A DNA stretch of 64,000 bases from a virus. The DNA is taken from IMG/VR virus record IMGVR_UViG_3300043446_003177, positions 32,001 through 96,000 of that record. One strand, given 5' to 3'. Positions 47,301-53,300 of the stretch are shown in pieces (the first letter of the stretch is position 1; every line of letters begins with the position of its first letter). The position numbers were made by a program.

Positions 47301-50300
47301 CTGATATGATTGTCGATTATTCTCAACATCTTGAGTCAGGTAGAGTTTGGAAGGTTGAGGTTGAGATTCCAATCGAACTTGCAGAGGAAGATGAGCATCT
47401 AGCATCTGAGATTCCAAGTTCATTGTATATTGACTGTTACGTTATCGCACCTGATCGTGATCTTGCCGATTATATTGCGAAACGAATTTATCCTGATTAT
47501 TTGTCTGTTTGTATTGGTGATGATCCCGAACTTCCCGCATAAAGCACCGAAGCATTATGAATACTCTTTTGAAAAGTTTAACGCTCGTTACGTCGCTGTT
47601 TATTTGCACGATCATCGGACGTATGACTATAACCTGGGTAAACCAATTCGGTGCATCTGGGGATTCTATCATTCCAAAACAGGAAACTACCACGCCCCAA
47701 TCAATGCAACGTCAGTGGGTGATGTAGTGAACATTTCGACTACAACTCCATATAGTGCGATGCAACTTAAAACTACACCTTTAGAGAGAGCATTTATCTA
47801 ATCATGCAATTTGCAGAAGGAACACTCGTCAAATACAAACAACACATTGGTACAATTGCTTTTGTGGATGATGGTTGTTTAACGATCTGCATTGCTAGAA
47901 ATGAACACAAGTCTACTGAGGTAAGAATTGTTGTTTATCGCTCTGAATTCAAAGACATTGAACTGTTCAAACAATCACAAAAATGAATCTTTCACCTAAG
48001 TATGTTATTGCGATTGTAAGTGGATTTGCATTGATTCTCATTTGGAATGCATTTCTAATTGTACGTGATACAAAGTTATTAAAAGCGTATGATGCCTGCA
48101 CACAATTTACTCATCATCCCGATTGTCCTTATTCAAAATGACTGAAGATTTTGTAAAACTGAATGTCCATGAACTTGGTATTCTTTTAGCTGCTCTACAA
48201 CTTGTTGATTTGCGAGAGGAGCATTTAATTGCGAAACAGTATGGAAGTGTTCCTGCACTGTATAACAAACTTTATACTCTCTTTGAGCGAATGGACACTT
48301 CACAGACTGTCCTACGCAACGATGTGGTGCCGTCCTTCTGACCTATAATACAGAGGTAATCAAGGGAACACGATGAAACACCCTATCACCCTCACCTCTG
48401 GTGAATTGTTAGATGTTATTGCTGCTCTTGAGGTGAATGAAGATGAGGCATATTGTATCAAAGATGATCCTCAACTTGCCGCATATTATATGAACCTTGC
48501 AGTGAAGTTTCAAAAGATATATGATCTACTTCAAGGTATTCCTGGTGAAGATCGTATTGCTGAACTTGTGGTCTCTTCTACTGAACTGAAATGATTACCG
48601 ACACTATCCAAGACAAACAGATTCGCCGTTCGATTGTGAAAGCAGTTGAATCGATGGATCTGCGCCTGCTACAGCGTATTGCCTATGAGGTACGTTGTGA
48701 AGAAATGGGTCTTTATCCTGATGGTTGGAAACTTTATCCTGAAAACTGATGGCTCTTTCAAGTTCCACAATTCAACGTCTTGCTGATGCACTTGCTGATG
48801 ATGTTGCATCTTATATTACCGAGGACGAGCGATTTTTTGAGTTAATGATTGAGTTGATTCCTGATGCACTTTCTGCTAAATTAGGTGATCTGGATCACAA
48901 TGTTGCTGCTGAGTTATCCTGTTGTATTTCTGAACGTTTACGTCTTTTAGCCTCATGATTTCGATACTAACTTCATTGTTTCTCACGACACCTCCTGTTG
49001 CACCTAAACCAGTGGTGTATCGACCTTTCATTTATGAGACCCCTTGTTTATTAGAGTATGGTCTTCAAACCTATCCTGATACTTGTAAGGTTGTAGAAAC
49101 CCGAGAACCAGGCGGCGCTCTTCGCACAAGGAACATTTACTCTAATAAACATCGTCTCACAATCAAAGGTCGATTTGATAAAACTCAAGGATATATGACT
49201 TGGGATAGTCATAATAAGTATGAGTATAAGTGGGAGTATAAAGTTGGTGGTAATCAAGAGTCTGGTTCATGGACTTATGTGATGCCTGGATTCCTATTGC
49301 AAAATGTAAGTTGGGACTGATGCAAGTTACTGAACATAATCTTCATGAGACTGATCTAAGTCTTAAAGACATTAATGAACTTATTCGTTTAGTTAAACAA
49401 GAGAGTCATAATCATAAAGGTGATTCTGCTCGTTTATTGTATTATGGAGTTCTGATTGGTAAGTTAGTTTGTATTCGACACGATCTATTATGAAATTTGA
49501 AATTAGTTATCTCAAACCAAAGAAGAAAGGATACGCTAAACAAAGTGCAGTCTTTTATCAAATTGAAGATGCAATGATGTGGGAAGAGTATGTAAAACAA
49601 AGAGGTTGTAAAGAAGTTCAATTAATGGTAAAATGAAAGATAAGTCATTATGGAGATGGTGGGCTAAAGCATTAGGTGAGAAAGCAAGTAAGTGTGATAA
49701 AGAGTCAGATAAGATTGCATTGATTCGCACTACAATTTTTTTCACTTATTTGATTACTAACTGTTTCATTGTTGCAGGTGTAATTCGACATTGGAACGAT
49801 TCAACAAATATTGAAATCTTTATTGAGAATCCTTATGAAACAAGACAACAAATACAACCAATTAAAAGCATATCTATCCCTCAAGTATGATTACTATGCT
49901 TCACTTGGAAAGTATGAACTTGGTGAGAGAGAAGACTCCGAATCAGAACATAAGTGGAGACTGATCTCTGATATTATGGAATTCATTGATGGTATGGAAA
50001 TCAGGGAAGAAATCAATCAAAATAAGGTTAATACATTAAAAATCATTTAAAAATGTATTAAAAAATATATGTGTGTTTATTATATGGTTCTCAATAAGCA
50101 TGAAATAGTTGAGAATCAATAAGGTTACGTTGTTGAGAATGTCTTCTAATACCTTATAAAACCCTCCAGTATTCCTTATAAAACCCTCCAGTCCTTGTGA
50201 TCTTAGCGTGCTTTCTATCACAAGAACCGAAAAAAGTCAAGCCCCCGCGAAAAAAGTTCCCAGACCCACACAAAATCTCGACGAGACTTGACGCCAGAAT

Positions 50301-53300
50301 CTAGTCGAGATATAATACACACAAGGCATCATAAATCTAGTCGAGATATCCTGCAATAATCTCGTCGAGACCTCATGCATCATTATATCAAGCATTCATA
50401 AATCTCGACGAGATATGCAACAAATCTCGACGAGACTACACAACATTCGTCATCATAATACATCACAAATCTCGACGAGATACACTGCAAATCTCGTACA
50501 TCTCGTGCATATTATACACATAATCTCGACGAGAATGTGCATGAATCTCGTGTGCATTTCGTGACGAATCTCGATGCATATGCATATATACTTTCATATG
50601 CACGTCTCGATACATATGTACGGTTGACACGTGATCTCGTGCATGTTATTATATGTACAGTTCAAACACAGGTACACAGGTTCTTATGGCTTACATGCAA
50701 AAGCAGAAGTACAGGATTACACTGGAAATGGATGTACTAGAAGACTTTAATCCTCATCAGATTGATTGGACAGAATTATTTGATCTTGGTGGAGATGAGA
50801 ATGTTACCGCTTATATTGAAGACCTGAGTAGAGATCGAGTCTGGTAATTATACCACAAATTCACCAGATCTGAGGAGATTTATAAAATCTTAATATTCTC
50901 AATAAGACCTTCGTTATTGAGAATGAGGACAGTTGGGGAACTGGCACAGTACTAGTTGCGAGCCCCCTGGTGATGGGTTATTATACATTTGTCGTCGGGA
51001 ATTCACCTTGAAAGACATTCGCATTCGTGTTGAAACCTACGATGGTTTGTGTACAATTTGGTATGAGCGTTCAAAGTTAAAGAATGCTTGCGATGTGATC
51101 AGCAAGCGTGTATACAACCAACTCTGTGGTTTAAACATCAAAGAAGTCAACGTTTCGGTAATTTGATTATGTGTGGTCCTGCTTTTGAGTATACTCGGGA
51201 AGATTTCCTGAATGATGCATCCCAAGAAGAATGGGATGAATGGGAACAGAAAGCGGCAGAACTTGAGCTGCCGTTGGATTACTACCTCGCTGAGTTTGTA
51301 TAATATTCCATTGTGACGATCTGAGAACTGGTCCACACCCCCTTGCGGGATCCCCGAATTCGTTCTACATTGCATTCGTTCCTGAGAAACAAGCAAATGC
51401 GTCCTGTTGCTGTTCATCCCGAGAAAAGCATTCGTTTCACCAAACACGCTGCATTTTGGTGTGAGATGATTAATCTGTACAAGAGGAACTATCCGACTCA
51501 TTCGTTTCGTCAAATCGCTGAACATTTTGAATTGAGTGAGACGAATGCCCGTCGTTATTACTACGGCATTCATCACCACAATGCAGGGTATTTTGGTTGT
51601 GGGTATACTCAATTCCGTGAGGGGGCATGTGTGACGATCTGAGAACTGGTACATACCCCCTTGCGTTCCACGACCTGGGGGTGTTAAGTTGGTTTCGTGG
51701 TTGAGAAACGCATTCTCCCACACTGTTCTTTGCTCTCTACACTAACATGGAACTGACCAAATCTTTCCCCCCTGCTGATGATCTTGTGACTAAACTTTCT
51801 GCAATTGATTATCAAAAGCATTTTCATAAGTACATGGATATCGTTGAAACTGTTGTCGTTTATGTAGCTGCTATTGCTACTGTTCTCTGGGATAAGTTTC
51901 AAACCGTGAAGATCACCACTCCTGATATCATCTCTGAATATTTCTACTTCAACTTCAACATGCGTCGTGAATTTGGTGATGAATTCATTGGCGTGAGTGT
52001 TGGTAACCGTTACTTCGGGATTTATGATAACTCCGCTCAGTGGGGCATCCTGGACGAGAATGGTGCGCTCTGAGAACTGGCACATGGGGGGTTGATCTGC
52101 CCCCCGATCCCTGATACATTACATTCGTACCTGAGAGGCACACCATGTTTGATGAACTCTGGAGTGAGATTCAAGACGCCCCTGGTGAAATCTTTGATCT
52201 CCCCGAATTGCGTGAGTTTGATGATCAGTTCGATGATAAAAGTTTCGGTGATTTCCTGAACTCCAACAATGACTTCTGAAATGCAATCGATCAAAGAGTT
52301 CTTTAGTGATTCTGAGTGGGATCTGATTTATGATCTTTTAGAAAGCAATCGTCAGTTTGATACTGATGAGTCGTATGCTGAAGATTACGACACTGCTCTG
52401 AAGAAAATCCGCGATCTCTTTGAGGAAAAGTGATGAACAACAACGCTAAGACTTGGACCGATGATTTCTCTACTCTGGTGGAGAAGTATGCCGAGTTCGT
52501 GATGGACGGCATGGATTGGAAGACTATGGAACAGTTCGTATTTGATACATTGGTTTCCTCTTACAATGAGTATTCTGAGGAAGAACTGATTAGTGAGATT
52601 CGTGAGTGTTATGATGATGAAGTCCTGGAAAGTTTCGGCGTAAAGATAACAGATGGTCCTGAGGATGTGACGGCCTGAGAACTGGCACATGGGGGGTTGC
52701 GGTCCCCCCCTTTTTCGTGCAATACTAACAGTATGAAAAACACACACATCGAACACCCCGAAGATTCCATCCTGAACGGTGATCTGACCGTGCTGGATTG
52801 GTTCGTGAATGAGGGTAACCTCAGCGTCAAGATTGATGGTGCTCCCGCCATTGTGTGGGGTAAGAATCCTGCGAACGGTGAGTTCTTTGTGGGCACCAAA
52901 TCTGTGTTCAACAAAGTTAAAATCAAGATCAATCATTCTCATGAAGAAATTGATGCGAACCACCAAGGGAAGGTTGCAGAAATTCTTCATGCTTGTTTTG
53001 ATTGGTTGCCTCGTACAGAGTTTATCTTTCAAGGTGATTTTATTGGGTTTGGTGGTAGCGATGAGTATACTCCTAACACGATCACTTATAAGTTCCCTGA
53101 GGTAGTTGATCAGGAGATCATTGTTGCTCCTCATACATTCTACACTGCAGAGAATGACCTTCGTGATGCTGTAGCGCATCCGATGAACTTTATCATCACG
53201 GATACTCATTATGTGAAATTTGTGAAACCCCGTGCATACATTCTGCACGGTCAAACGTCGTTCGCTGATGTAGAAGAGGTGTGCAACTTCGCCCGTCAAA

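Follow-up and report, generated by a model that had tools for sequence, protein, structure and literature searches.

A conserved array of short palindromic sites at early promoters of T4-like cyanophages, tentatively read as operator-like

In the phages lambda and P22 several short dyad sites, namely the lambda operators OR and OL (CI and Cro) and the P22 Arc and Mnt operators, overlap the -35 and -10 elements of early promoters. Arrays of sites are further known as centromere-operator arrays, such as R1 parC with ParR and the omega-protein heptads of pSM19035, and as iteron replicons, where the lambda origin carries its iterons inside gene O, P1 oriR has DnaA boxes at both ends, and RK2 oriV is another example. 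In T4 itself, the origin oriE with repEA and repEB combines an early promoter, repeats and tiny proteins, and the function of the repeats is unproven (PMC3016281). Here we analyze an array of short palindromes in a 64-kb stretch of DNA (“the window”), which represents bases 32001-96000 of the 172-kb IMG/VR virus record IMGVR_UViG_3300043446_003177. The source genome is a T4-like cyanophage of the Kyanoviridae type, with a baseplate gp6 that is 59% identical to gp6 of Synechococcus phage Bellamy. Almost all genes of the window are on the plus strand, and the array is located in the early-gene region approximately 10 kb upstream of gp6. The array is real and conserved, a cis-element that has so far gone undescribed. 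We tentatively regard its palindromes as operator-like sites of early promoters for a putative dimeric DNA-binding protein. Judged by analogy, the array would work most like phage early-promoter operators or centromere-operator arrays, and its layout resembles that of iteron origins.

The array contains eight full sites of the form AATCT(C/A)G(A/T)CGAGA (Table 1), built on a dyad-symmetric 11-bp palindrome, TCTCG-W-CGAGA. The pattern TCTMGWCGAGA occurs at 8 places compared to approximately 0.06 expected by chance. If the site is relaxed to TCTMGWCKAGA, the array (50274-50643) is its sole locus in the 172-kb genome. The original prediction, made from the sequence of the window, had named eight full and three half copies. 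All of the full copies were located, but the number of half copies was too low, as at least five half-sites were found (ATCTCG at 50491, 50500, 50545, 50568 and 50634), plus GTCTCGAT at 50606. The start-to-start distances it had listed (24, 36, 24, 43, 22, 45, 22, 32, 22 and 23 nt) are exact, and the spacer run TGCATATGCATATATAC is found in the window. The gaps between full sites are irregular (22-54 bp); a 67-nt unit is tandemly duplicated within the array, and part of the regularity in spacing is due to this duplication.

For the proposed search for the 13-mer in relatives, IMG/VR was scanned for pairs of exact ATCTCGACGAG copies lying 8-38 nt apart. At least 120 contigs match, and the module was located in more than 100 IMG/VR contigs; among the matches listed, all have a cyanophage-like G+C content and approximately 40 hold 4-7 sites within 600 bp. 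The module was also found in the isolates S-SRM01, S-T4 and P-SSM2. These isolates and the IMG/VR relatives share with the window the site TCTMGWCKAGA, its placement in a promoter spacer and before a tiny acidic gene, and the block upstream of the array. They differ from it in that they keep the acidic micro-gene (open reading frame 1, ORF1) with 2-3 in-frame DLDE sites, whereas the window and its nearest relative, the locus L054, have lost the gene and carry more non-coding sites. Across lineages the copy number ranges from 3 to 11. In P-SSM2 (NC_006883, ~66030-66169) the arrangement TTGACA-[ATCTCGACTAGAT]ctgg-TATAAT precedes PSSM2_098, a diverged ORF1, and the site is restricted to this one locus of the complete genome. 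S-T4 (MH412654.1) has a four-site array with identical spacing at 2777-2934 and 174346-174503, 171,569 bp apart, which is probably a single locus that the linear record repeats at both ends. The complete genomes of Bellamy and S-SM2 lack the site. None of the arrays in P-SSM2, S-SRM01, S-T4 or the IMG/VR contigs is annotated, and no description of the motif or the module was found in the searchable literature. Megablast against phage isolates gave no match, and for the upstream block distant blastn matched only S-SRM01 and DSL-LC03.

The conservation is concentrated on the sites. In 72 distinct loci the sole conserved 7-mers within the 330 nt upstream of ORF1 are the words of the site and four short elements (CATATAT/ATATATA, TTGTCAA/TTTGTCA, CTTATAA and CATAAGA). 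L054 is without ORF1 and has 7 full sites plus half-sites, and its alignment with the window shows diverged spacers but conservation of the sites, of the GCATATATA element and of the promoters. Further evidence for selection on the sites comes from the ORF1 genes of relatives, in which the motif is read as (D)LDE. In the motif codons Asp is encoded by GAC in 85% compared to 37% elsewhere in the gene, Glu by GAG in 83% compared to 44%, and Leu by CTC or CTA in 97%. The test comprised 36 loci retrieved independently of their ORF1 copies and gave Fisher values of 3e-12 and 5e-6, both inflated by the relatedness of the loci. Hence, even within coding sequence the motif is under constraint as nucleic acid, and two lineages without ORF1 retain the array. 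One may ask if the array arose from a short palindrome by slippage and duplication without having a function, and decays in the window alongside the lost acidic gene. The 67-nt tandem duplications, the degenerate half-sites in the 3' half of the array and the loss of ORF1 would fit such an origin, but the persistence of sites between diverged spacers, both towards L054 and in the 72 loci, would not, nor would the constrained synonymous positions and the presence of the array in phages of the sea and of fresh water that are as far apart as P-SSM2 and S-SRM01. We regard a functionless array as unlikely, and indeed as exceedingly so.

The variation within the sites is informative about the kind of molecule in which they act. 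Each half-site reads either TCTCG or TCTAG, and both halves vary independently with 66 single compared to 18 double variants, so that hairpin pairing is not maintained. The 9-nt core is symmetric, and so are the next positions (T at -1 in 92%, A at +9 in 81%); only the +/-6 position is asymmetric (A at -2 in 89% compared to T at +10 in 39%). This better conserved left flank could be taken as a sign of RNA, i.e. of a transcript of ~360 nt from promoter P1 whose repeated AUCUCGACGAGA units bind a protein or pair with each other and thereby control the translation or stability of the downstream small genes. An RNA would also account for the predominance of one orientation (65% of the non-coding and 79% of all copies), the array folds with z = -4.95 compared to shuffled sequences with copy 4 pairing perfectly with copy 5, and the synonymous constraint in ORF1 fits RNA as well as DNA. 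However, the z-score is a trivial consequence of repeated palindromes, a single unit forms only a 4-5-bp stem, and the prevailing single half-site variants break the pairing. Sites upstream of promoters or in their spacers are outside the transcript of that promoter, and an Rfam scan of positions 49000-52000 gave only a chance-level match to a microRNA. An RNA function thus appears very unlikely, and the hairpin sponge, one of three alternatives put forward in the original prediction, is disfavored. The symmetry of the half-sites, their lack of covariation, the short stem and the sites outside the transcript are therefore read as pointing to DNA sites for a dimeric protein. Among the three alternatives an operator or decoy array on DNA fits best, given dyad half-sites that vary independently, the overlap with promoters, and sites that are the sole conserved words in diverging spacers.

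Several sites coincide with core promoter elements. The promoter-like sequence P1 holds copy 2 in its spacer as had been predicted, site 1 abuts its -35 hexamer, and a half-site lies in the spacer of P3, a second strong promoter-like sequence that stands before ORF2. A site in a promoter spacer recurs in four lineages: TTGACG-17-TATAAT in the window and L054, TTGCAT-17-TATAAT in S-SRM01, TTGACA-17-TATAAT in P-SSM2, and in many contigs the promoter P2 (cTTGCA-TCTCGTCGAG-..-TACAAT). P1-like promoters were found in S-SRM01 and P-SSM2, and relatives have a homolog of P3, TTGCAT-17-TATAAT, at the 3' end of their ORF1. In several contigs a site overlaps the -10/+1 region of a TTGACA-17-TAGAAT promoter, and another one stands directly before the ORF1 start. 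The earlier statement that no credible ORF follows P1 agrees with our finding that no conserved ORF spans the array; the 49-aa ORF at 50415-50564 is unconserved in L054.

The sites thus appear to be embedded in and around tandem sigma70-type promoters (P1, relics of P2, and P3) with which a putative small early transcription unit begins. A protein bound to site 2, site 1 and the half-site in the P3 spacer could occlude RNA polymerase and shut these promoters, and in this way might time early expression. The sites further downstream may serve cooperative loading or act as roadblocks. In the lineage of the window the acidic gene, which in most relatives overlaps the array, has decayed; the sites were kept, and duplication of the 67-nt unit multiplied them. 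Binding, repression and timing are suggested here from the sequence. The arrangement shares with the lambda and P22 operators short dyad sites, several per region, which overlap early-promoter elements; it differs from them in the absence of a known repressor gene, in 8-11 instead of 2-3 sites, in half-sites only 6 bp apart from center to center, and in the many sites off promoters. With R1 parC and pSM19035 it has in common 7-10 short repeats of mixed orientation around a promoter, where cooperative binding is a property of those systems. In contrast to them, the array belongs to a lytic T4-like phage without a partition system, a search of the genome gave no ribbon-helix-helix protein, and the model of the neighboring small protein ORF2 has another fold.

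A number of observations speak against an operator function. Eight to 11 sites over ~380 bp exceed what a single operator needs, and most of the sites in the window are far from P1 and P3. All promoters are predictions from consensus matches. The near-helical phasing claimed originally is not significant in the window, where the Rayleigh R reaches at most 0.49 for periods of 10-11 bp (p = 0.52) and only a marginal peak is seen, at 11.25 bp. Over 57 related loci, which are not independent of each other, the mean R is maximal at 10.75 bp (0.56 compared to 0.36 for the null). In S-SRM01 another array of four sites, its spacers rich in A and C, lies 5 kb from the first (L289:600-720; 90900-91010); it is located between the convergent ends of a small ORF and an HNH endonuclease gene and without an evident strong promoter. 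In 75 loci no conserved DNA-binding gene was found within 5 kb, the neighbors being mostly tiny acidic early proteins, and ORF2, judged by its model, does not look like a DNA binder. The window encodes at 42491-43138 a 215-aa early-region protein with a C-terminal DNA-binding domain of the AbrB/MazE/SpoVT type, whose domain order we take to match that of cyanobacterial CyAbrB regulators. Apart from S-SRM01 and DSL-LC03, full-length homologs are confined to approximately 20 IMG/VR contigs. As a candidate binder it is not supported, being absent from the array carriers P-SSM2 and S-T4, and in 27 contigs with the gene no site lies within 10 kb.

Two more searches for a binder can be reported. RHH_1 and HTH_3 domains were not found in the genome. 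An HTH-like 81-aa ORF (51397-51642) is not supported as a general binder, as it is present in only 2 out of 75 loci and has no family match. The binder could be phage- or host-encoded. If it belonged to the host, the array might act as a DNA decoy that titrates a transcription factor, nucleoid protein or defense sensor away from its usual targets, with a copy number tuned by repeat expansion. The range of 3 to 11 copies between lineages, the growth by 67-nt duplications in the window, the many sites away from promoters, the promoterless second array of S-SRM01 and the failure to find a phage-encoded binder would all suit a decoy. Against this, the few sites of an injected genome cannot titrate an abundant protein before replication, and the conserved placement in promoter spacers would be unexplained. 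When bacterial genomes were scanned with the paired motif, the matches listed comprised only high-GC bacteria, in which it encodes DLDE, and no cyanobacteria. We consider a decoy improbable, and continue to favor operator-like sites.

The surroundings of the array bear on another of the original alternatives, an iteron-type origin. The module starts with an AT-rich tract (core GTATTAAAAAA-ATATATG), followed by a cluster of TTCTCAATAA/TTGAGAAT boxes. It continues with CTTATAA direct repeats and the hairpin-capable block CTTGTGA..CATAAGA, TTTGTCAAG and a C-rich run ending CCCAGACCCACACA; its 3' part consists of the site array interleaved with sigma70-type promoters, ORF1, ORF2 and a second box cluster. 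The AT-rich tract had been noticed correctly, and it aligns to S-SRM01, DSL-LC03 and IMG/VR loci. The sites could then be iterons of a plasmid-like phage origin, where an initiator, in some lineages together with host DnaA at flanking boxes, opens the AT tract and the early promoters activate or prime replication. We regard this as possible but rather unlikely.

The order of boxes, AT tract, repeats, GC-rich block, array with promoters and again boxes resembles that of known iteron replicons, and the AT tract that adjoins the array ranks in the top five of the genome for A+T content. In some relatives perfect cyanobacterial-type DnaA boxes (TTTTCCACA) are clustered at the homologous flanks. 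In DSL-LC03 (L010, 80123-80579) 7 out of the 13 DnaA boxes of the genome lie within 457 bp, 4 out of 6 are at the locus in the L105 contig and 3 out of 3 in the L101 contig; S-SM2 (L133) and S-SCSM1 (L260:900-925) have them as well. In L105 the unit is enclosed by DnaA boxes (7450-7475 and 8127-8160) of inverted orientation, which occupy exactly the positions of the TTGAGAAT/ATTCTCAA boxes of the window, and in the sampled loci both kinds of boxes are mostly mutually exclusive. The restriction of the site to a single locus in the genome of the window and in P-SSM2 also speaks for an origin, as do the different repeats of other lineages at the same place. S-CAM7 (L137:1100-1290) has at least 6 copies of a different, ACGCAGCATATA-like repeat upstream of its ORF2 homolog, which suggests lineage-specific site families at the same locus. 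Such a swap would be expected from co-evolving pairs of site and binder, under an operator or an origin reading alike.

Other findings speak against an origin. The genome of the window has no cluster of DnaA boxes, with none at the locus, and no initiator-like gene lies nearby, where the neighbors are tiny acidic proteins without a Pfam family and ORF2 is without a PDB match. The GC and AT skew of the 172-kb genome is uniformly positive without a turning point. Although Bellamy, S-SM2, SynMITS9220M01 and S-SCSM1 are without a TCTCG array, they have retained the conserved block together with the AT tract, the boxes and ORF2, and the array is thus not needed for the role of the conserved block. 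The second array of S-SRM01 is located elsewhere. Compared to iteron replicons, the likeness includes repeats adjoining an AT-rich tract, embedded promoters, flanking DnaA boxes in relatives and some sites in coding sequence; the difference is the absence of a Rep-type initiator gene and of DnaA boxes in the window, and an array that is dispensable in close relatives. Of the proposed iteron origin, the AT tract and the DnaA boxes of relatives stand, DnaA boxes and an initiator gene in the window do not, and the GC skew is uninformative.

T4 oriE, the sole precedent from the T4 family, is likewise dependent on an early promoter and associated with repeats and tiny proteins. Both loci belong to T4-like phages, lie upstream of baseplate gene 6 and combine a promoter of early mode with clustered short repeats and with early proteins of very small size (45-50 aa). 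In the T4 record (NC_000866) the oriE repeats have a strict 24-bp period, compared to the irregular 22-54 bp gaps of the window, and lie inside the coding sequence of gene 5 on the strand opposite to the repE genes. BLASTP of ORF2 against RepEA and RepEB gave no alignment, and as evidence for an origin the parallel suffers from the unproven role of the T4 repeats. The more specific proposal that the module is a T4-like cyanophage origin composed of the AT tract, interchangeable boxes (DnaA or TTGAGAAT) and array iterons that also throttle the early promoters appears doubtful to us. If true, a factor of the host or the phage would be linked in this way to the onset of phage DNA replication.

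The conserved non-coding block between the direct repeats and the array was defined by an alignment of 25-29 loci. It is more widespread than the array, as it is also present in the four array-less phages named above. Its stem shows one compensatory change and mostly an alternation of G-U and G-C on the plus strand, and the covariation is thin. The block may represent an RNA or a protein site. Its loop CTAAGCGAGCG is invariant in most relatives.

Two micro-genes accompany the array. ORF1 (MYDDYDLDYTY..DLDE..DLDEDYARD..LAYRHYA) encodes a very acidic, Tyr/Asp-rich early protein of 42-65 aa and is present in 84 out of 124 loci. It could be assigned to no family of Pfam or PHROG, and the records of S-SRM01 and S-T4 do not annotate it. 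As the codons of its DLDE motifs are copies of the DNA site, the protein could be a DNA mimic, or the gene could have been born from the repeat array. The lineage of the window and L054 has lost the ORF1 protein and has kept and multiplied the sites. The confident AF2 model of ORF2 has a predicted local distance difference test (pLDDT) value of 87 and shows a monomer with almost no regular secondary structure and no fold match in the PDB (Foldseek), and the protein may fold only as an oligomer. From its N-terminus (KR.V.VTLD) ORF2 was considered as a ribbon-helix-helix binder; this was rejected, as the model lacks the two helices of the fold and has no PDB match, and as ORF2 of the same type is also found in phages without the array.

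T4-like cyanophages kill a large share of the ocean's picocyanobacteria, and to our knowledge they are without the MotA/AsiA system of T4. In the searchable literature we found no sequence-specific early regulator, early-to-middle switch or mapped origin for them. As the array is conserved in phages ranging from S-SRM01 of fresh water to the marine model P-SSM2, a DNA-binding factor seems to be missing from the picture, and the 13-mer would be a concrete handle for it. The same 11-mer is under a rare double constraint, as a nucleic-acid site and as the DLDE codons of a tiny acidic early protein, and the window provides a natural experiment in which the protein is lost and the sites are kept. 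The lineage with gene loss and persisting sites, and the synonymous-site test, are what the window newly contributes.

Table 1. Features of the module in the window, and ORF1 in relatives (positions in the window unless a locus is given)
Feature	Position	Strand	Remarks
AT-rich tract, core GTATTAAAAAATATATG	50040..50087		5' edge of the module; 92.5% A+T in 40 bp (50030-50110), top 5 in the genome
Upstream box cluster TTCTCAATAAG, TTGAGAATCAATAAGG, TTGAGAATG	50088..50141		DnaA boxes at the same position in some relatives
Two 22-bp direct repeats, ATWCCTTATAAAACCCTCCAGT	50149..50192	+	related CTTATAA repeats 2-9 times in relatives
Conserved block	50193..50273	+	hairpin-capable CTTGTGAT..ATCACAAG (50194-50224); GTCAAG (50236-50241); C-rich run ending CCCAGACCCACACAAA
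Site 1, AATCTCGACGAGA	50274..50286		ends 1 nt before the P1 -35 hexamer; kept in L054
Promoter-like P1, TTGACG-17-TATAAT	50288..50316	+	11/12 consensus matches; kept with its spacer site in L054
Site 2, AATCTAGTCGAGA	50298..50310		within the P1 spacer
Site 3, AATCTAGTCGAGA	50334..50346		
Site 4, AATCTCGTCGAGA, central T	50358..50370		positional homolog of the site in the P2 spacer of relatives
Site 5, AATCTCGACGAGA	50401..50413		homolog of the site directly before the ORF1 ATG in relatives
ORF1 relic	50415..50564	+	ATG at 50415 is the positional homolog of the ORF1 start; frame shifted relative to the sites; 49-aa ORF unconserved
Site 6, AATCTCGACGAGA	50423..50435		
Site 7, AATCTCGACGAGA	50468..50480		kept in L054
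Half-site pair AATCTCGTAC + ATCTCGTGCAT	50490..50510		AAATCTCGT kept in L054
Site 8, AATCTCGACGAGA	50522..50534		
Half-sites AATCTCGTGTGCAT + AATCTCGATG	50544..50577		AATCTCGAT kept in L054
GCATATATAC element	50582..50591		CATATAT and ATATATA among the few 7-mers conserved in 72 loci; kept in L054
Half-site GTCTCGAT	50606..50613		kept in L054
Promoter-like P3, TTGACA-17-TATTAT with TG	50624..50652	+	half-site ATCTCG (50634) in the spacer; putatively drives ORF2
ORF2, 53-aa acidic early protein, phrog_12516	50686..50847	+	~50 aa in relatives
Downstream box dyad ATTCTCAATAA-N8-TTATTGAGAAT	50895..50924		same box type as at 50088-50141; closes the unit; DnaA boxes at the equivalent place in L105
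ORF1 in relatives	L109:6257-6409		
ORF1 in S-SRM01	L009:2832-2969		
ORF1 in S-T4	L131:2518-2664		
ORF1 in P-SSM2	L261:1325-1480		PSSM2_098

Two minor observations concern the window as a whole. The T4 late-promoter word TATAAATA is absent across the 64 kb, where approximately 5 copies are expected by chance. Positions 54000-58000 form a G+C-rich island (0.53-0.56 compared to approximately 0.37 on average in the genome), where the GC skew is negative and very small ORFs are densely packed.

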